A stretch of 64,000 nt of DNA. It comes from Actinomycetes bacterium (lineage in GTDB: Bacteria > Actinomycetota > Actinomycetes > Prado026). The translations under genes and the position numbers were made by a program. The stretch covers positions 14,267 through 78,266 of the forward strand of contig JBBQWS010000009.1 in NCBI GenBank assembly GCA_038210415.1, read 5' to 3'. Within the stretch, counting starts at the first letter, position 1. The number at the start of each line of letters is the position of its first letter. This document shows, in pieces, positions 4,894 to 59,321 of the stretch. The notes under the pieces were generated by a model. The model was not told the origin of the DNA. It ran no database searches and saw only the letters and a list, made by a program, of their open reading frames with translations.

Positions 4894-4973
4894 CTGGCCC
4901 GCGGATGGCCCCGGGCGCGACTCGGCTACTGGCTCGGGTTCAGCCCCGCTAGCAGGGGTGCGGGGGGGTCGGC

Positions 4974-6143
4974 TCAACGGAAGGCGCCCGCGGCCAGCCG
5001 GTCGAGCGCCTCGGCAATGACGACCTCGCGCTTGCAGAAGGCCCAGCGCACCAATGGTCGGCCGATCTCGACGTTGTCGTAGAAGACCTGGTGCGGGATC
5101 GCGACGACGCCGCAGCGTTGCGGCAGGGCCCGGCAGAACGCGACGCCGTCGTCCCAGCCGACGCTGCGTACGTCCGTGGTCGCGAAGTAGGTGCCGCGGG
5201 GCACGAACACGTCGAAGCCGAGCTGGGCCAGCCCGTCGCACAGCTGGTCGCGGCGCGAGGCGAGCTCGGTGCGTAGCCCCTCGAAGTACGACGCAGGCAG
5301 CGCGAGCGCCTCGGCGATGGCGTACTGGAACGGGCCGGACGACACGTAGGTCAGGAACTGCTTGGTCGTCCGCACGGCAGCGACGAGCTCGGGGGACCCG
5401 GTCGCCCAGCCGACCTTCCAGCCGGTGAACGAGAACGACTTGCCCCCCGACGAGATCGTGAGGGTGCGGTCGGCCATGCCCGGCAGGGTGCAGATGGGGA
5501 TGTGCTCGGCGCCGTCGAAGGTCAGGTGCTCGTAGACCTCGTCGCTGATCACGAGCAGGTCGTGCGCGACCGCCACCTCTGCCAGGGCGGTGAGCTCGGC
5601 GCGCGAGAGCACCGCGCCGGTGGGGTTGTGCGGGGTGTTCAGCAGGATCGCCCGGGTTCGCGGGGTCACCGCCCGGCGCAGCGCGTCGACGTCGAGGGCG
5701 AAGTCGGGCGCCCGCAACGTGACCGGCACCCGGACGCCGCGGGCCATGGTGATCGCGGCCGCATAGCAGTCGAAGTACGGCTCCAGTGCGATCACCTCGT
5801 CGCCGGCATCGACGAGGGCGAGGATCGCTGCGGCGAGCGCCTCGGACGCCCCGGCCGTGACGAGGACCTGCGCATCCGGGTCGAGCTCGATGCCGTATCG
5901 CGATCGCTGGTGCTCGGCGACCGCGCGGCGGAGCTCGGGGACGCCGAGGCCGGGCGGGTACTGGTTGCCGCGGCCCTCGCGGATGGCCCGCACGGCCGCC
6001 TCGGCGATCTCGCCCGGGCCGTCGGTGTCGGGGAATCCCTGGCCCAGGTTGATCGACCCGGTCGCGGACGCGAGGGCCGACATCTCCGCGAAGATTGACG
6101 TACCGAGGCCTTGCAGGTGTGGGGAGAGCAGGCGGGCGACCAT
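4974..6143 (-). CDS. PLP-dependent aminotransferase, class I/II (DapC / MalY-like)
   Basis: 389 aa. N-terminal LQGLGTSIFAEMSALA..INLGQGFPD and PLP-lysine context SSGGKSFSFTGWKVGW. Confidence 0.85.
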   Translation of the reverse strand: MVARLLSPHLQGLGTSIFAEMSALASATGSINLGQGFPDTDGPGEIAEAAVRAIREGRGNQYPPGLGVPELRRAVAEHQRSRYGIELDPDAQVLVTAGASEALAAAILALVDAGDEVIALEPYFDCYAAAITMARGVRVPVTLRAPDFALDVDALRRAVTPRTRAILLNTPHNPTGAVLSRAELTALAEVAVAHDLLVISDEVYEHLTFDGAEHIPICTLPGMADRTLTISSGGKSFSFTGWKVGWATGSPELVAAVRTTKQFLTYVSSGPFQYAIAEALALPASYFEGLRTELASRRDQLCDGLAQLGFDVFVPRGTYFATTDVRSVGWDDGVAFCRALPQRCGVVAIPHQVFYDNVEIGRPLVRWAFCKREVVIAEALDRLAAGAFR

Positions 6144-6970: not shown

Positions 6971-9970
6971 TCAGCCCGAGCTGACCGTGATGACGCCGAC
7001 GTAGAATGTCTCGTTGGTGCTGCGCGCGGTGAGCACGGGGACCGCCTCGGCCGGGAACGTCACCTGGTAGGTGTCGACGTTCGTGCCGAAGGTGAGCGGC
7101 GGCCCGATAGCGCCGTCGGACGACGAGTCGGCGACGTTGTTCGGGTCCTGCGACCCGCCGACCGGCGTGAGCGGGGCGCCGTTGAGATCCATGGAGTCGC
7201 CGACAAGGCTCGCGTCGCTCTCCCAGAGCACCGCACCGATCGTTGTCGCGGCTCCGGGGACGCCGGTGATCGTGGTCGCCTGGTCCCGGCCCGGTTGTAC
7301 GCTGGCGATCCCGTCGAACACGGTCACCTGCGCTCCCGGGTGCGTCGGGTCGTCGAAGACGACGACCAGCGACCAACCGGCGTAGCGGTTGCTGCCGAGG
7401 GTCGCCGTCGGGTCGGCGGCCGACCAGGTGCCGCCACCACCGGCCCGGACCGACGAGGTGACGTCCGCGAAGGCCTGGTAGACCTTCGGGTTGGCTTTCG
7501 CGTCGACCAGGTGGGCGGCAGTGACGTCGGTGTAGTCCGAGTCCGCGGGACCACGGAGCTTGATGTGGGTCGGGTCGGTGGTGCCGTCCCAGCTGCCGGA
7601 CCAGTACAGCCCGGCCCAGCGCACCGTGGCGCCGCTCGGCATGGCGAGGTTGACCGCGGACGACGCGTAGGTCGAGGGGTCGCCGTCGGCGTCGTACCAG
7701 GTCATGTTCCAGTCGTTGTTGTCGAGCTTGGTGCCGATCCGGTTCTGGGCGTCGGTGCAGCCCTTGAGCACGATCGGGCAGGTCATCAACGTGTTGCCGA
7801 CCTGGGTGATCGATAGGGCGCCCTGGCCGGAGAACCGAGCGGTGAGGCCCTCCTTCTGGATGCCGCGCTCACCCGTGAGCGTGATCGGGGCAAGACCGGC
7901 CGCGCTGACGGTGACGGTCACCGGGGTGTCGCCGAGCGAGCGTTCGGCGACGTCGACCCGGAGGTACGCGGTCGTGGACTCACCCGGTGCCAAGGCGGGG
8001 TGCATGCAGGTGGCCCCATCGGTGGCTGCCGAGCACGACCAGCCGGTGACCGGCGCTCCGGTGGCGTACGTACGCGGGTGCAGGGCCGGGAGCCCGTCGG
8101 GCAGCCCGACCGCCGAGCCCTGGACGCCGACGAACGTGACGCCCTTGGGCAGCGCGACCGTGGCAGCCAGGGCGGTGGAGGTAGCGGTCCCGGTGTTGGT
8201 CACGGTGAAGCCGATCAGGCCGCTGCGGCCCTGCACCAGGTCGCCGAGCCGAGCCATCGAACCCGACAGGAGCGCGGCGCCCGGGTCAGTGGGACTGGGG
8301 GAGGGCGACGGGGACGGTGTCCCAGTGTCGGTCGGGCTCGGCGACGGCGAGGGCGACGGGGATCCGGTGTCGGTCGGGCTGGGGCTCGCGCTCGGGCTGG
8401 GGCTGGTCGACGTCGGCGTGGGGCTGGGGCTGGTCGAGGTCGGGCTGGGGCTCGGGCTGGTCGACGTCGGGGTCGGCCCGGCCGGGCTCGAGCTGGTCAC
8501 GGGTACCGGGATGGTCGCCAGCGAGGTCGGACCGCTCCCGGGTGTCGACGGGTCGCTTGGCCCGGGCGTCGACGGCCCGCTCGGACCGCCGGGTCCCCCG
8601 GTGCCGGCAGAGTCGCTCGGGCCCGGGACGACGGGTGCCGTCGCCGCCGGCGGGTCGCCGTTGATGTCCGGCTGTCCTGAGCTCTGGGTGAGTGCGACGA
8701 CGACACCGGCCCCGGCCAGCCCGATGACCGCTGCAGCGACGCCGGCGATCCAGGTCGTGGTGAGCGCGCCCCCGGTCGCCGTTGCCGTGATCGTCAGCGT
8801 CGGGATCGCGCTCGCCGCCGCGGTTCCGGTGCTGCTGCTGCTCGCTGCTGCGGCTGCCGGTGTGCTGGCTGCTGCGGCACTGGCGGCTGATCCCACGGCT
8901 GCGAGTCCGGCGGCTCCTGCGGCAGCCGCGGCGGCCACCGCTACCGCCCCCGACGACGCTGCTGCTCCGCCGCCTGCTGCTCCGGCGCCTGCTGCGCCGG
9001 CCCCCGCACCAGCACCGCTCGCCGCACCAGCGCCACCCGCGCCAGGGATCGAGCTGATGGCTGCGCCCGCGCCGAGCAGCGCGCCCGCTTTGAGGTAGCC
9101 TGCGACGAAGAGCCCCAGGACCAGCGGCGCAACGACGGCGCGCATGCCGTGATTGACGTCGACGAGCTCGCCGACGAGGGCCCGGCACCTCTCGCAGGTG
9201 TCGAGGTGGCCTTCGACCTGGGCGGTCTCACGCTTGGACAGGCCTCCGCGGGCGTACGAGCCGAGCCGGTCGGAGTACGGCTGGCAGCCCTGGTCGAGCG
9301 GCCCCATGAGGTGCTGCTGGAGGTAGGCCTGGCGCAGTCCCTCGCGGGCGCGGTACGCGAGCGCGGCGACGCCGTTGGCGGTGAGCCCGAGGATCGGGGC
9401 TACCTGAGCCGGGTTCAGTCCCTCGACCTCGGTGTGCCACAGCACCGTCTGCCAGCGCTCGGGAAGCGACGAGTACGCCCGGGCGACGAGCGACTTCTCC
9501 AGGCCCTCGACGGCGGGGTCGACGAACGGGACGCCCGGGTCGTACGGCTCGAGGTCGTCGGTGACCTGGACCTTGCTGCTCGCCCGGGTGCGGTCGTACG
9601 CGCCTCGCCGGAGGGCGGTCAGCAGGTACGCGCGGAACGCGACGTCGGGCCCGCCGCCGGCCTGGAGCACGACCAGCACCTTCGCGAAGGCGTCCGACAC
9701 GAAGTCTTCGGCCTCGCCGGGGTCGCGGGTCAGCTGCCGGGCTAGCGAGCGCGCGGCGCCGATGTGCCGCGAGAAGAGCGGCCCGAACGCCTCGGTGTTG
9801 CCGGCCCGGACCGCGGTGATCAGCTCAGCGTCGCTCGGCTCGACTGCGCCTTCGGGGGCGGCGTCGAGCGGGACGGGGGGCTGTTCGGACACGGGTCGGG
9901 CTTCTCCATTCGAGGTCGGCGAGCTCGTGCGTGGGGCAGTTTGTCCGGTCTGCGGCCTATCAGTGTCCAT
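6971..9970 (-). CDS. ECF sigma factor fused to a zinc anti-sigma motif, membrane segments, an Ala/Gly-rich tract, a Pro/Ser/Thr linker and a ~435-aa C-terminal domain
   Basis: - One uninterrupted frame.
- Sigma-70 region 2 (FVSDAFAKVLV) and region 4 HTH (NPAQVAPILGLTANGVAALAYRAREGL).
- HLDTCERC (HxxxCxxC) motif.
- Hydrophobic segments VVAPLVLGLFVAGYL and WIAGVAAAVIGLAGAGVVVAL.
- SPSPSPSPTDTG repeats, then a Trp/Asp-rich domain.
- Start taken at ATG 9970. The farther TTG at 9991 would make codon 2 a rare TTA. Confidence 0.75.
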   Translation of the reverse strand: MDTDRPQTGQTAPRTSSPTSNGEARPVSEQPPVPLDAAPEGAVEPSDAELITAVRAGNTEAFGPLFSRHIGAARSLARQLTRDPGEAEDFVSDAFAKVLVVLQAGGGPDVAFRAYLLTALRRGAYDRTRASSKVQVTDDLEPYDPGVPFVDPAVEGLEKSLVARAYSSLPERWQTVLWHTEVEGLNPAQVAPILGLTANGVAALAYRAREGLRQAYLQQHLMGPLDQGCQPYSDRLGSYARGGLSKRETAQVEGHLDTCERCRALVGELVDVNHGMRAVVAPLVLGLFVAGYLKAGALLGAGAAISSIPGAGGAGAASGAGAGAGAAGAGAAGGGAAASSGAVAVAAAAAAGAAGLAAVGSAASAAAASTPAAAAASSSSTGTAAASAIPTLTITATATGGALTTTWIAGVAAAVIGLAGAGVVVALTQSSGQPDINGDPPAATAPVVPGPSDSAGTGGPGGPSGPSTPGPSDPSTPGSGPTSLATIPVPVTSSSPAGPTPTSTSPSPSPTSTSPSPTPTSTSPSPSASPSPTDTGSPSPSPSPSPTDTGTPSPSPSPSPTDPGAALLSGSMARLGDLVQGRSGLIGFTVTNTGTATSTALAATVALPKGVTFVGVQGSAVGLPDGLPALHPRTYATGAPVTGWSCSAATDGATCMHPALAPGESTTAYLRVDVAERSLGDTPVTVTVSAAGLAPITLTGERGIQKEGLTARFSGQGALSITQVGNTLMTCPIVLKGCTDAQNRIGTKLDNNDWNMTWYDADGDPSTYASSAVNLAMPSGATVRWAGLYWSGSWDGTTDPTHIKLRGPADSDYTDVTAAHLVDAKANPKVYQAFADVTSSVRAGGGGTWSAADPTATLGSNRYAGWSLVVVFDDPTHPGAQVTVFDGIASVQPGRDQATTITGVPGAATTIGAVLWESDASLVGDSMDLNGAPLTPVGGSQDPNNVADSSSDGAIGPPLTFGTNVDTYQVTFPAEAVPVLTARSTNETFYVGVITVSSG
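8282..8674 (-). repeat. coding low-complexity Pro/Ser/Thr linker with tandem ~45-nt units (inside the ECF fusion gene)
   Basis: Residues ~440-570 of the ECF fusion. The sequence SPSPTDTGSPSPSPSPSPTDTGTPSPSPSPSPTDPG is visible as repeated GGCGACGGGGA..GTGTCGGTCGGGCT units on the + strand at about 8285-8400. Confidence 0.7.
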
Positions 9971-27081: not shown

Positions 27082-27192
27082 CCCCCCTTCCCGCCACAAG
27101 GGTCCCCCCATGCCGCTAGGCCGCGGTTCAGGGACCATCACGACTTGCCCGGGATGTGTCCCTCTGCTGTGTGCGCCCTGGTGGCGGGAAGG
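27082..27192. repeat. palindromic intergenic element, copy A (right arm truncated)
   Basis: The left arm CCCCCCTTCCCGCCACAAGGGTCCCCCCATGCCGCTAGG starts right after the TGA at 27079-27081. The right remnant CCCTGGTGGCGGGAAGG (27176-27192) is the reverse complement of CCTTCCCGCCACAAGGG (27086-27102) at 16 of 17 positions. Confidence 0.8.
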
Positions 27193-27201
27193 TTGGTGCA
27201 G

Positions 27202-32070: not shown

Positions 32071-33036
32071 ATGACATGGCTCGTCACCGGAGGCGCCGGC
32101 TACATCGGGGCCCATGTCACCCGCGCTCTCGAGGCGGCAGGTCTCGGGGTCGTCGTCCTCGACGACCTGTCCAGCGGCCATCGCAGCTTCGTCGCCGAGG
32201 GGACGGCCGTCGTCCAGGGGTCGGTCGTGGACCCGGCGACGGTCCGCTCGGTCCTCGCTGACCACGGCTGCACCGGTGTGATCCATCTGGCCGGCTTCAA
32301 GTACGCCGGGGTCTCGGTCGAGCGCCCGCTGCACACCTACGAGCAGAACGTCACGGGCATGCAGGTGCTGCTCGGCGCGATGACCGATCTCGGCGTCGAC
32401 CAGCTGGTGTTCTCTTCGTCGGCCGCCTGCTACGGGTCACCGGACGTCGAGCTGGTGACCGAGGACCTCGTGACCCGCCCCGAGTCGCCGTACGGCGAGA
32501 GCAAGCTGATCGGCGAGTGGTTGATCCGCGACGTCGCTCGGGTGACCCCGTTGCGGCACACCTCGCTGAGGTACTTCAACGTCGTGGGCTCAGGGGCGCT
32601 CGACCTGTACGACACCAGCCCGCACAACCTGTTCCCCTTGGTGCTGAAGGCGTTGAGCGAGGGCCGTACCCCGATGGTGCGCGGCGACGACTACGCGACC
32701 CCGGACGGCTCGTGCGTGCGCGACTACGTGCACGTCTGCGACGTCGCTGACGCGCACGTCGCGGCGGCTGAGGCGCTGGCTGCGGGGAAGCCGCTCGAGC
32801 CGGTCTACAACCTCGGCAGCGGCGAAGGCCTGAGCGTGTTCGAGATCATGGCGGCGATGGCCCGCGTCACCGGCATCGACTTCGTGCCGGCGATCGGCGA
32901 CCGCCGTCCCGGGGACCCGGACCGGATCGTCGCCTCGGGGGCGCTGGCTGCCCGGGACCTCGGTTGGGTGCAGGCTCACACCGTCGACGAGATGGTCCGC
33001 TCCGCCTGGGACGCCTGGGCGACCGCTCCCCACTAA
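32071..33036 (+). CDS. galE: UDP-glucose 4-epimerase
   Basis: 321 aa. NAD motif TGGAGYIGAH and catalytic YGESK (YxxxK). Confidence 0.9.
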   Translation: MTWLVTGGAGYIGAHVTRALEAAGLGVVVLDDLSSGHRSFVAEGTAVVQGSVVDPATVRSVLADHGCTGVIHLAGFKYAGVSVERPLHTYEQNVTGMQVLLGAMTDLGVDQLVFSSSAACYGSPDVELVTEDLVTRPESPYGESKLIGEWLIRDVARVTPLRHTSLRYFNVVGSGALDLYDTSPHNLFPLVLKALSEGRTPMVRGDDYATPDGSCVRDYVHVCDVADAHVAAAEALAAGKPLEPVYNLGSGEGLSVFEIMAAMARVTGIDFVPAIGDRRPGDPDRIVASGALAARDLGWVQAHTVDEMVRSAWDAWATAPH

Positions 33037-33038
33037 GA

Positions 33039-33284
33039 CCCCCCCTTCCGCCACAAGGGTCCCCTCATGCCACTAGATGGCATTCCGGTGCCCTTCATCG
33101 CGTCGGCCGGCGGGCCCGATCGGCGACGCCGGACCGAGCCTGTCGATCGAGGGGCGCGGCCCACCGGCGCAGCCCGGCGCAACGAGGCGCAGCCAGGCGC
33201 CGGGGGCCGGCCCGGCCCGCTGATGAGTGTCACCAGACCGCGGTCTAGTGGCATCAGGGGACCCTTGTGGCGAGATGGGGTGGG
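33039..33284. repeat. palindromic intergenic element, copy B (full length)
   Basis: The arms at 33039-33077 and 33244-33284 are reverse complements; the inner 28 nt pair at 27 of 28 positions. The core is 166 nt. The element fills the whole galE/copD convergent spacer. Confidence 0.9.
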
Positions 33285-35336
33285 TCAGGGGTGGTTGCGC
33301 CGGTCGCGGCGGTTGAGGTCAGCCAGGCGCCGGTTGTACGCGGCGAGCTCGTCGTCGGCGTCCTCGCCGCGGTCACCGCTGGCCAAAGCCTCGGCCTCGA
33401 CCCGGTCCGCCGCCCGGTCGAACCGGCGGGCGTCGCGTTCGTCCGAGCGCATCCATTGGATGCCGATGCTCACGACCACCATGACCATCGGGATCTCGCC
33501 GAGCGCCCAGCCGATCGACCCGCCGAGGTGCTGGTCGGCGAGCAGGTCGGTGAGGTACGGACGCTGGAGCGACTCGAAGTAGCCGTTGCCCAGCAACGTG
33601 CTGGACGACATGACCGCGATGTTGAAGAAGGCGTGCAGCGGCATGGCGATCAGGAGGAGACCGAACCGGGCCGGATACGGCAGCCGTGGCGGACCCGGGT
33701 CGATCCCGAGGAGCGCCCAGAAGAACAGGTACCCGGACAGCACGAAGTGGGTCTGCATGAAGATGTGGCCCCAGTGGCTGCCCATCAACGTGCCGAACAA
33801 CGACGTGAAGTACAGCCCGTAGAAGCTACCGACGAAGATGGCGGTGGCCACGAACGGGTTCGCCAGGATCCGGACGAACGGGGAGCCGAGGAACGCGAGC
33901 AGCCACTCCCGAGGGCCCGCGTCGTCGCGGTGCGCGGGCAGCACCCGCAGCGCCAGGGTGCTCGGGGCCCCGAAGACCAGCAGCACCGGCACCACCATGG
34001 CGAGCGTCATGTGCTGGATCATGTGCGCGCTGAAGAGCACCCGGGAGTACGTCGCGATGCCTCCGCTGGTCGCCCAGGTGAGCAGCGCCAGCCCGGTGAA
34101 CCAGCCGATCGAACGGCCGACCGGCCACCGGTCGCCGCGCAGGTGGAGTCGGCGCAGTCCCACGCCGTACAGGGCGGCCGCGAGCAGGGCGACGCCGAGG
34201 AACAACGCATCAGGGCGAATCTCGGTGAGGGCGACCCGTACGAAGGTGGGCGGCGGCGGAAGGTCGAAGCCGAGTACGAGCCGCGCCGGGCTCGCTCCGC
34301 TGAGGTCTTCTGGAGTTACGACGGGGGCCGGCGTGCGCGACAGCGCGACAGCGATACCGATGGCCGCCGACATCACGGCGAGCTCCGCTGCGGCGAGCCG
34401 GACGAAGGCCCCGCTCCGGCGCGGACCGGTCAGCTGGGGAATCGTGGTGGTGCGGTGCCACCAGCCGGCCACTCCGAGCAGGACGAGCAGCACGGTCTTG
34501 GCGGTGACCAGGCGGCCGTACCCGGTGGTCAGCAGGTCCAGCGGCCCCGAGAGCCGGATCCACGCGTTGGCCATGCCCGACAGGGCCAGCCCGACGTAGC
34601 ACCAGAGCGCGACCGAGCTGAACCGTGGGACGACGTCGCGCAGAAGTCGCCGGTCGACGAACGCGACCGTGAGGAGCCCGCCGAGGCCGCCGACCCAGAC
34701 CGAGACGGACAGGACGTGGATGAGCACGCTCGAGACCGCGACCTCGTGCTGGCTCGACGCGCCCGAGTGACCGGTCAGGAAGGGGACCAGCAGGGCCGCC
34801 CACGCCGTGAGCAGCACCACGGCCGTGCCCGGTCGGGTGATCACGAACCGGCTGGCCACAGCGACGACGCCGACGCCGACGAGCTCGGCCAGCAGAGCCT
34901 GGCCCTGCGAGATCTCGGTGACGAAGTTCGTGAGCACCCCGGGGGCCAACGCGTCACCCACCGACCCACCGATCTCGTCGGCCAGGGTCAGCACGATCTG
35001 CGCGGCGACGGCGAGGAACCAGCCGAGCGCCGCGTACGACGCCCACCTCGTGAGCTTCACGGCGACGCCGCCGAGCCGACCGTTGCTGGTCGGCAGGAAG
35101 GCGGCAACGGTGAGGAGAAGACCGCTGGCCACCAGGCCGGTCAGGTCGGTGAGCAGTCGGGACACCGGCAGCGCCCAGCCGACCGCAGGTCCGGCCGAGG
35201 GCAGACCGGCGGGCACCGGCTGCGGGCTCCCGCCGCCGGCGAGCAGCGCGACCACCAGCGCAACCAGGGCGACAAGCAGGCAGCCCCAGGCGACGTGGCG
35301 CAGCGTCAGCGGCCCGGGGGCGGTGGTGTCCGACAT
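33285..35336 (-). CDS. CopD / cytochrome-oxidase-assembly (CtaG-like) fusion membrane protein
   Basis: ATG 35336 overlaps the copC stop by 1 nt. The product is 683 aa and highly polytopic, and it sits in an operon with copC. Confidence 0.75.
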   Translation of the reverse strand: MSDTTAPGPLTLRHVAWGCLLVALVALVVALLAGGGSPQPVPAGLPSAGPAVGWALPVSRLLTDLTGLVASGLLLTVAAFLPTSNGRLGGVAVKLTRWASYAALGWFLAVAAQIVLTLADEIGGSVGDALAPGVLTNFVTEISQGQALLAELVGVGVVAVASRFVITRPGTAVVLLTAWAALLVPFLTGHSGASSQHEVAVSSVLIHVLSVSVWVGGLGGLLTVAFVDRRLLRDVVPRFSSVALWCYVGLALSGMANAWIRLSGPLDLLTTGYGRLVTAKTVLLVLLGVAGWWHRTTTIPQLTGPRRSGAFVRLAAAELAVMSAAIGIAVALSRTPAPVVTPEDLSGASPARLVLGFDLPPPPTFVRVALTEIRPDALFLGVALLAAALYGVGLRRLHLRGDRWPVGRSIGWFTGLALLTWATSGGIATYSRVLFSAHMIQHMTLAMVVPVLLVFGAPSTLALRVLPAHRDDAGPREWLLAFLGSPFVRILANPFVATAIFVGSFYGLYFTSLFGTLMGSHWGHIFMQTHFVLSGYLFFWALLGIDPGPPRLPYPARFGLLLIAMPLHAFFNIAVMSSSTLLGNGYFESLQRPYLTDLLADQHLGGSIGWALGEIPMVMVVVSIGIQWMRSDERDARRFDRAADRVEAEALASGDRGEDADDELAAYNRRLADLNRRDRRNHP

Positions 35337-46339: not shown

Positions 46340-46356
46340 CTCCCCCTCCCCTAGCT

Positions 46357-46513
46357 CCCCCTTCCGCCACAAGGGTCCCCCCATGCCGCTAGAACGAGCT
46401 CGCGCGCCACTCATCGCAGCGCGGTTGAGTCCGCAGCGAGCCGCAGCGGCGAGTCGTGAGTGAGGCAATCGCGCGGTCTAGTGGCATGAGGGGACCCAGG
46501 TGGCGAAGGGGGG
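46357..46513. repeat. palindromic intergenic element, copy C
   Basis: Left arm CCCCCTTCCGCCACAAGGGTCCCCCCATGCCGCTAGA (46357-46393) and right arm TCTAGTGGCATGAGGGGACCCAGGTGGCGAAGGGGGG (46477-46513). The core is 83 nt. Confidence 0.9.
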
Positions 46514-46675
46514 CGGAGGGTGCTGATTTCGGGGCAGGGTCGGACGCGGGCAACGATTTGCCGCACCGAGAGGTAACGATTGCGACGGAATACGCACGTC
46601 AGCGGCCGGGGCGCGCTCCCGGCGCGGTAGCCTCGCTGCGCCACCTGCACGGACCGTGACGAGAGGACCCAACGC

Positions 46676-59128: not shown

Positions 59129-59133
59129 CCCGG

Positions 59134-59297
59134 CCCCCCACCCCAGCCCGCCACAAGGGACCCTCCATGCCACTAGGCGGAGTATCCGTGCCACTCACCA
59201 CGGGGGGCTGACGGCTCTTCGCCGGCGTCGCCGCGCATGACTGACAGGAGACCTCGATCTAGTGGCATGGAGGGTCCCTTGTCGCGGGGGAGGGGGG
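59134..59297. repeat. palindromic intergenic element, copy D (compensated arms)
   Basis: The left inner arm GCCACAAGGGACCCTCCATGCCACTAG (59150-59176) and right inner arm CTAGTGGCATGGAGGGTCCCTTGTCGC (59259-59285) pair at 26 of 27 positions. The core is 82 nt. Confidence 0.9.
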
Positions 59298-59321
59298 CGG
59301 GCGCGGGACGGGGGAGGGGGG

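Follow-up and report, generated by a model that had tools for sequence, protein, structure and literature searches.

Few non-coding features of bacterial genomes are as common as repetitive extragenic palindromic (REP)-type repeats. To our knowledge, the HUH transposase RAYT (REP-associated tyrosine transposase) is the only known REP enzyme partner and has been described mainly in proteobacteria; we know of no equivalent described in high-GC actinomycetes. A single gene bracketed by the repeats was the signature that tied RAYTs to REPs. The element analyzed here, copy B, occupies the spacer between a galE-like gene and a copD gene in 64,000 nt (the window) of an actinomycete of the Prado026 lineage (assembly GCA_038210415.1, contig JBBQWS010000009.1, positions 14,267 to 78,266). 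On balance, and with modest confidence, the spacer was read as a head-to-head pair of units of a repeat resembling REPs and bacterial interspersed mosaic elements (BIMEs). These units would be portable stop and hairpin modules, in a system that would resemble REPINs (REP doublets) and their RAYTs but use a non-HUH enzyme. The dispersed arms are the same as those bracketing a gene predicted to encode a winged helix-turn-helix (wHTH) nuclease, and such a bracket recurs across the gene family.

Copy B and the repeat family

The window has a G+C content of 70.8%. The spacer at 33037-33284 lies between the ends of two convergent open reading frames (ORFs), one ending at 33036 on the + strand (NAD-dependent epimerase, galE-like, Pfam E 3e-52) and the other at 33285 on the - strand (CopD and Caa3_CtaG domains, Pfam). 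A complete head-to-head doublet was recognized in it from sequence, pattern search and folding. The doublet fills the spacer, as an earlier note made from the sequence of the window had stated, but the length is 248 nt rather than the 246 nt given there. The left outer C-rich tract (33039-33049, + strand) begins 2 nt past the epimerase TAA stop and matches the family consensus CCCCcTTCC ahead of the box. It reads CCCCCCCTTCC at the start of 33039-33077, which had earlier been copied one C short. The left 27-nt box GCCACAAGGGTCCCCTCATGCCACTAG (33050-33076, +) has 0 mismatches to the pattern and is followed by a semi-conserved inner arm (..GTGCCCTTCATCGC; 33077-33101, +), delimited by arm alignment, profile search and repeat search (family D1). 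The core (33102-33219) is GC-rich and self-folding and is not common to the other window copies. On the - strand the right inner arm (33220-33244; profile search, repeat search family D3) leads to the right box (33245-33271; 1 mismatch to the pattern) and to an outer tract (33272-33284) that is C-rich on that strand and adjoins the copD/ctaG TGA stop (33285-33287). The two boxes are reverse complements with 1 mismatch in 27, in agreement with the arm pairing described earlier. The whole spacer folded as RNA into a single long hairpin of -180.8 kcal/mol (z = -10.1, equalled by 0 of 200 shuffles); the copies at 46.4 and 59.2 kb gave z = -7.8 and -7.0. Despite these strong stems, no U-tract and 0 terminator-like sites were found in 32800-33500, as an intrinsic terminator would call for.

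The box, searched as the 27-nt pattern GCCACAAGGGTCCCCYCATGCCRCTAG with ≤3 mismatches, matched the window seven times (27093+, 33050+/33245-, 46366+/46478-, 59150+/59259-) against 0.00 expected. A profile built from 105 arms (nhmmer) returned the same seven arms and a vestigial outer right arm at 27175-27197. Arranged as inverted doublets at 33.0, 46.4 and 59.2 kb, with a fourth, decayed copy at 27.1 kb, the arms always lie at gene ends, and repeat search pointed to no other genuine dispersed family in the window.

Scanning of metagenomes returned 75 stretches, 73 of which carry an arm on re-search with the full box (the exceptions are L018 and L056; L-numbers denote related contigs or records compared with the window). 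The 73 contigs hold ~120 arms, arranged by the full-box count as 35 inverted pairs and 50 unpaired arms, and ~35 of the latter have ample space for a partner. Pairs span 127-490 bp, with one further locus of 1,145 bp and one of 2,231 bp between the arms. Nearly all the contigs come from a few Joint Genome Institute (JGI) samples (Ga0302299, Ga0302321-23 and others) and represent several related populations with mutual identities of about 88-90% and about 98-99%. Many arms coincide with contig ends, which would be expected if the repeats break assemblies. A dispersed family of intergenic gene-end repeats with inverted arms had been proposed from the window, with further copies to be sought beyond it; these contigs, together with the seven window arms, bear out both, and the family is certainly real.

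A scan of GTDB species representatives with GGGWCCCYYCATGCCRCTAG gave one match, by chance, within a helicase gene, so either the representatives do not include the lineage or its box has diverged. Blastn of the element against a plasmid collection gave only a chance match in Methylobacterium coding sequence. No record matched the epimerase or aminotransferase proteins of the window exactly. Rfam 15 gave no match at gathering thresholds for the whole window and none at E ≤ 1 for 32990-33330. No description of the repeat family or of a gene-repeat link was found in full-text literature, with subscription journals outside coverage. The sequence had not been recognized as a described family in the earlier note, and these searches agree.

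The anatomy of a unit was derived from an alignment of 104 arms. Units are oriented and run from a C-rich tract through the 27-nt box to ~25 semi-conserved nt. The 40 nt ahead of the box contain 54-67% C and 4-19% G, and the tract often starts CTAACCCC. The box has the consensus GCCACATGGGTCCCTTCATGCCACTAG, with 95-100% conservation at most positions, is asymmetric, carries CTAG at its inner end as noted earlier, and has no GTAG/CGTC tag. The looser stretch to the inside of the box has the consensus gCCGaGgTTtcGcGcCAcTCAtc, so the short shared stretch previously seen beside each arm is real. Along the unit GCCAC(T/A) repeats at positions 1, 20 and ~42, roughly every two helical turns, and from its sequence this spacing looks like iterated protein-binding sites. 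A small hairpin stands beside the box in one solo subfamily only.

A second module, the ~65-nt M2 (CTGGCCCTTGCGGACGCGGGTTGGCCGGCCGGCGGGCCAGGGCGGCCCGCTAAGGGCCAGG), is a palindrome in its own right. Several solo arms (at least 4 independent loci) have it ~100 nt to their inside, and it is central in the L014 pair (4960-5020); in L027 (reverse strand) it lies about 165-240 nt inside the arm. M2 was also seen in L005, L009, L011, L022, L030, L043, L047, L062, L065 and L074. As M2 is combined with arms, the family is mosaic. By eye only, the ends of the copy B core (TCGGCCGGCGGGCC.. and ..GGCCCGCTGA) are similar to M2.

Several variants were recorded. Outer C-rich tracts are often short tandem repeats of locus-specific units (L040 865-923; also L027, L010, L070, L071, L066 and L072). 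Some are telomere-like, such as (CCCCTAACCCCAA)x3, which places TAA in all three frames. The tracts are G-quadruplex-prone on the opposite strand and vary in length among strains at one locus. At L051 166-225 and L054 ~2533 (reverse strand) a truncated right arm (..GAAGGGACCCATGTGGCG) comes ~10 nt after a full left box; these minimal forms are short near-perfect hairpins resembling the compact palindromes of Rhodococcus ruber described below. At L034 7880-7960 a divergent arm GCCACATGGGACCCATGATGCGAATAG lies within its own near-perfect 70-nt hairpin (GGTCCCCAAACCTCAACCTATTC...GAATAGGTCGAGGTTTGGGGGCAC) and may be a separate subfamily. In a related species (about 84% nucleotide identity), L023 230-320 (reverse strand) is orthologous to window ~33037. 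There a different perfect hairpin (GTTGATCTTGAGCAA..TTGCTCAAGATCAAC) comes after the epimerase gene, the next gene downstream also differs, and no box doublet is present; the hairpin may belong to another repeat family or be just a local terminator.

The gene bracketed by the arms

The 1,145-bp pair is one dus/glyS locus present in three populations (L024, L036, L072). In this compact ~1.15-kb unit the arms enclose a tightly fitting 329-aa ORF whose stop lies inside the right inner arm. L081, from another data set, holds a 78%-identical orthologue with the same arms and the same glyS neighbour, and its box variants resemble those of the window. The gene was found at one locus only in ~770 kb of sequence and is bracketed at dus/glyS in lineages whose proteins are 59-100% identical. 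It stands alone between the repeats, with no AbiEii toxin partner adjoining it. Searches of 773 kb by tblastn with IS200 TnpA and an E. coli RAYT gave nothing credible, a weak negative as the queries were approximate sequences. The absence of a transposase or RAYT gene from the window itself is likewise a weak tblastn result, not all window ORFs having been Pfam-scanned for transposases.

The 329-aa protein gave a weak Pfam match to AbiEi_4 and belongs to no known transposase family. In precomputed Pfam assignments some of its homologues carry AbiEi_4 (PF13338) or the Vsr-type REase_MTES_1575 domain (PF18741; described in PMC3710099), and some were named very-short-patch-repair endonuclease by JGI. 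An AlphaFold2 model was obtained with a predicted local distance difference test (pLDDT) score of 89. Foldseek matched its N-terminal two thirds to the AbiEi antitoxin 6y8q (E 4.5e-4) and Rv2827c (1zel), and its C-terminal domain to the homing endonuclease I-Bth0305I (3r3p; probability 1.0, template modelling score 0.70) and NGO0050 (3hrl). As modelled, the protein is an AbiEi-like winged helix fused to a Vsr/I-Bth0305I-type nuclease. The family comprises at least 1,398 clusters at 50% identity (E ≤ 1e-30) and conserves the motif PD...E-x-D-S...H. In the clade of the window the acidic D is replaced by N (EMNS/EVNS); E-x-N-S occupies alignment residues 253-256 of the 329-aa protein in P0121, P0122, P0124 and P0126, and also in P0178. 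Judged by this motif, catalysis may be altered or lost in the very clade that has single-arm brackets and massive dispersal.

In five further actinomycete lineages the homologue has repeats of its own at either flank, and in a sixth at one flank alone. At the same dus/glyS locus in L082-84 (59% identity) the gene lies between 51-nt inverted repeats that are 90-92% complementary and have a diverged box (..GGGGCCCTTGTGGCCACTAGATCGAGG..) and inner arm; no other copies were seen in these short contigs. At another locus in L085/86 (46% identity) the 51-nt inverted repeats are unrelated in sequence. Amycolatopsis japonica (45%) has 68-nt inverted repeats with each arm palindromic, Pseudonocardia sp. 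DLS-67 (43%) the same palindrome on either side, and Cryptosporangium (40%) a palindrome upstream only. No other copies of these four repeats were found in 21 kb each, and the A. japonica palindrome had no match in the plasmid collection. In Rhodococcus ruber (36%) ~50-nt palindromes lie on either side and dispersed copies occur: the 74-kb record contains six sites, two flanking the gene, three between convergent genes and one past a gene end. This record, NZ_CP145323.1 (L087, L089, L093), is labelled plasmid pmega_4 and contains pks13, fadD32, arabinosyltransferase and dprE-type genes and serS; with this content it resembles a piece of a chromosome more than a plasmid.

The pattern is that of a single syntenic gene with lineage-specific bracket repeats, which in some lineages double as the dispersed gene-end repeat. 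From these sequences the wHTH and Vsr-type nuclease is likely to be the cognate protein of the arms. As an association in sequence the enzyme link has good support; the function read from it is putative. The gene might instead be a parasite, a homing-endonuclease-like gene that landed in the centre of a pre-existing doublet in the way that IS1397 enters REPs. Its position between single inverted arms, where a core would be, in the clade of the window, L083 and L085, is consistent with such an origin, as is the resemblance of the nuclease domain to I-Bth0305I. Against it stand the fixed dus/glyS locus across lineages of 59-100% protein identity and a search of about 770 kb in which no further arm pair held the gene. 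Complete palindromes, moreover, rather than halves of one, lie on both sides in R. ruber, A. japonica and Pseudonocardia, and flanking repeats are kept in genomes without dispersed copies nearby. This origin was considered very improbable.

Independent arms, insertion sites and gene ends

The arms are independent oriented units and not two ends of one element. Inner-arm identity between left and right arms was 0.574 within a doublet against 0.536 between elements, and box identity 0.953 against 0.935. The cores of doublets are mutually unrelated, so that their reported difference in sequence stands, and copies are not homologous over their full length. One locus has arms that enclose a 585-aa gene in L040 and L026 and only the leader of that gene in L016; at another a full pair in one strain corresponds to a single arm with M2 in relatives. 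Tandem solo arms occur in L025. The description of copy B in the earlier note as a unit palindromic element with variable filling was therefore given up, in view of the ~35 solo arms with room for a partner, the near-equal arm identities and the unrelated cores. Compensatory evolution of doublet arms was considered and rejected, as the box effect is small (0.953 against 0.935) and confounded by species differences. Nor was the 585-aa protein retained as the possible enzyme, since it looks secreted, gave no match in Pfam and is simply deleted in L016.

The earlier note had left the choice between REP doublets (REPINs or BIMEs) and a miniature inverted-repeat transposable element (MITE). The former fits the arms and the latter does not, given their independence, the solo arms and the unrelated cores. 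A classical MITE would be a deletion derivative of a DDE insertion sequence (IS), non-autonomous and mobilized in trans by a transposase uncaptured in the fragmented assemblies, and an IS630/Tc1-type element would fit. Elements of that type insert in CTAG and duplicate TA, and would turn a C-TAG stop into C-TA-ACCCC. Such an origin agrees with an architecture in which terminal inverted repeats flank 127-490 bp of non-coding interior, with symmetric outer junctions CTAACCCC...GGGGTTAG at many sites, with the excess of TAA stops beside arms and with the frequency of arms at contig ends. It does not explain why the distance from box to outer end varies from 8 to 73 nt, why solo arms are common or why left and right arms are independent around unrelated cores. 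Decaying copies would show evenly spread conservation, and here it is limited to the 27-nt box. The sole gene in the compact arm unit, moreover, is not a known transposase and keeps a fixed locus.

Insertion could be examined at the copy A locus. Copy A (27082-27197, +; pattern and profile searches), a decayed doublet, lies in the gap that runs from the aminotransferase stop (27081) to the ATG of the amidohydrolase gene (27205). It retains the left box (27093-27119) and the outer right arm and has lost the inner right arm and box; arms had been reported to recur at 27.1, 46.4 and 59.2 kb, and all three sites were found, but the first is not a full doublet. In L079 and L080, where the aminotransferase is 87% identical, the two genes overlap (GTGA; ..CACTACACCGGGTGAGC..) with no element, and in L077 they lie 33 nt apart with no element. 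The window, L023 and L038 have the element exactly at this junction, as a full 128-bp doublet in L023. Homology of L023 to the empty relatives ends after CACTACACC and resumes at ATGA, so that the order is CACTACACC, the inserted block CCCTAACCCC...GGGGGG, and ATGA. The new aminotransferase stop is inside the inserted block, changing the last residues from ..YTG* to ..YTP*, or to ..YHV* in the window, and insertion left a G-rich Shine-Dalgarno-like tract ahead of the downstream start.

No target-site duplication was seen at ACC/CCCTAA and GGGGGG/ATGA in this single filled/empty comparison, whose sequences are about 12-16% diverged, and no TA is present at the right junction in L023 or the window. 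IS630-type insertion into CTAG/TA, suggested by the CTAACCCC...GGGGTTAG junctions and the TAA excess, gains no support from the filled/empty comparison. The MITE explanation as a whole was judged decidedly unlikely. Among 100 syntenic partner contigs 95 also bear the arm; the exceptions are rearranged and not cleanly empty. A 61-nt solo arm at L073 3739-3792 is flanked by GGGCGCTAG and GGGCGCGGTAG. In its place the syntenic L002 11066-11147 has four tandem copies of the 24-nt unit GGGCGATAGCCCCCATCAGATCGGA, which might represent a footprint or else a different outcome at that site.

Copy positions are tied to gene ends, as the earlier note had held. For 65 of 89 non-redundant arms, an ORF with high G+C at third codon positions reads toward the arm and ends 3-73 nt upstream. 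TAA is the stop of 55-58% of arm-adjacent genes, usually in the context CTAACCCC (n = 37), and of 3.4% of the remaining long ORFs in these sequences. At orthologous sites the box is 94.7% identical and the flanking coding DNA 90.5%, with 78.5% for the inner 25 nt, 64% for the next 35 nt and 62% for the outer tract. Box conservation is not due to the hairpin, because the box is retained in solo arms, where it has nothing to pair with. A sequence-specific reader of the box would be implied by this conservation.

The same observations bear on a host-maintained structural or regulatory element without a mobilizing enzyme, spread by recombination or gene conversion. Its units would be bidirectional 3'-end modules (Rho-loading tract and hairpin) or sites for a DNA-binding protein, and the repeats at the nuclease gene its operator and terminator. 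A box conserved above coding DNA, the oriented position of units at gene ends, the strong hairpins on either strand and the C-rich, G-poor leader would all suit it. So would the binding of inverted repeats by AbiEi-family autoregulators and the D-to-N change, which fits a binding-only protein. This explanation was nevertheless thought unlikely: recombination alone leaves new insertions in the 2-nt gap of coupled genes unexplained, hairpin function does not explain an invariant box in partnerless solo arms, and an operator role needs no repeat on both flanks of the gene, including past its stop.

In the preferred reading, the units arose as a genome-wide offshoot, lacking the gene, from the inverted repeats around one vertically inherited gene, and this origin was taken as shown. 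The box would be the binding site of the wHTH domain, and by analogy with RAYTs and REPINs the nuclease would nick or cut beside it, seeding the copying, gene conversion or homogenization of units. Surviving copies would be those that are harmless or useful as gene-end modules. Such a module would present in order a stop codon, a C-rich, G-poor leader suited to Rho loading, a hairpin strong on either strand and a G-rich exit, and could serve as a 3'-end or insulator module in both directions. As a unit brings its own stop, hairpin and Shine-Dalgarno-like exit, insertion would be tolerable even between translationally coupled genes. A fuller version, an actinomycete counterpart of REPIN-RAYT in which the nuclease reads lineage-specific repeats and has seeded hundreds of gene-end copies here and in R. 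ruber, is put forward tentatively, as plausible though short of probable.

Several points weigh against this reading. No homologue of the nuclease gene was found in the window by tblastn and the gene is known only from related contigs; the earlier note had seen no transposase or RAYT-like gene in the window, and outside it the same arms bracket the wHTH and Vsr-type nuclease gene. Binding, cutting or moving of the units by the nuclease is putative and drawn from the RAYT analogy, and the Asn in its nuclease motif may mean that the protein of this clade binds DNA but does not cleave it. Autoregulation of AbiEi-type proteins, which acts through inverted repeats of their promoters, could explain an upstream repeat without mobility. 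Dispersal is not general, since A. japonica, Pseudonocardia and L085 have no extra copies within 21 kb, and the Cryptosporangium homologue has a palindrome at only one flank. Neither target-site duplications nor clean gains or losses among near-identical strains were found. The putative terminator or insulator role is read from composition and folding, and a U-tract is absent.

Of the remaining window copies, copy C (46340-46521; boxes 46366-46392, +, and 46478-46504, -) is a doublet past the TAG stop of an SCP-like gene, and its right arm faces the start of an ABC-transporter gene. The placement reported earlier, after the stops of + strand genes, accordingly holds as a gene-end placement but not for this right arm, which faces a gene start. 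Copy D (59129-59321; boxes 59150-59176, +, and 59259-59285, -) lies between a convergent RCC1-repeat gene (stop 59128) and crcB (stop 59322). Both its boxes have the rare variant GGGACCCTCC in place of GGGTCCCCYC; no other window copy shows so clearly the two arms of a doublet changing together, an effect that is weak family-wide. At 8386-8493 of the window three overlapping 54-nt copies at 27-nt spacing (..GGGCTGGGGCTGGTCGA..) lie inside a long ORF, and this tandem repeat probably codes for a 9-residue repeat.

Significance and comparison with known systems

If the enzyme link is true, a second, mechanistically unrelated enzyme class maintains REP-like sequence populations, and intragenomic repeat populations arose independently with a different catalytic fold. 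A function would be provided for a large family of hypothetical AbiEi/DUF559-like genes, and Rhodococcus ruber, Amycolatopsis japonica and Pseudonocardia would be culturable test beds. The units rewrite gene ends by supplying TAA stops, altering C-terminal residues and parting coupled genes. They break metagenome assemblies, and they probably influence how 3' ends form in organisms with few canonical U-tract terminators.

The protein shares its N-terminal fold with AbiEi antitoxins and Rv2827c and its C-terminal fold with Vsr, DUF559 and I-Bth0305I nucleases. Unlike the AbiEi systems, the gene has no AbiEii partner, and no reported link of these families to dispersed repeats was found. Correia/NEMIS elements of Neisseria and IS630-derived MITEs are likewise small, non-coding and intergenic, with terminal inverted repeats and a possible effect on transcripts. 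They differ from the present units, for which no duplication and no transposase partner were found, and which have unrelated interiors and frequent solo, independent arms. The DNA uptake sequences of Neisseria and uptake signal sequences of Haemophilus are also conserved, asymmetric, high-copy motifs that occur as inverted pairs with variable spacers and form hairpins downstream of genes. The box is far longer (27 nt), is tied to a bracketed gene and comes with no competence evidence, and its sites were in intergenic spacers at gene ends, not within genes (an impression, with no count).

With the BIMEs of E. coli the family shares a mosaic of alternately oriented units and other short modules (here M2), whose composition varies by locus, and a location in 3' untranslated and inter-cistronic DNA. 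There is no sequence relation, and the outer C-rich and G-rich tracts and the unit-borne stop are not BIME features. The closest likeness is to the REP/REPIN-RAYT systems of Pseudomonas and enterobacteria. A REP unit, however, is an imperfect palindrome of 20-40 nt with a GTAG/CGTC tag, whereas the box is non-palindromic with CTAG at its inner end. The spacer of a REPIN is conserved and copied as a unit, whereas the doublet spacers here are not conserved. The host here is a high-GC actinomycete, and the bracketed protein, with its predicted wHTH and Vsr-type PD-(D/E)XK-fold nuclease, differs from RAYT, a Y1 HUH (IS200/IS605-like) transposase. In both systems, short extragenic repeats occur in high copy number as singlets and inverted doublets at gene ends and in convergent spacers. 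In both, a single-copy, vertically inherited gene (here at one locus in the sequence examined) is bracketed by the repeats, and repeats and gene diverge together between lineages.

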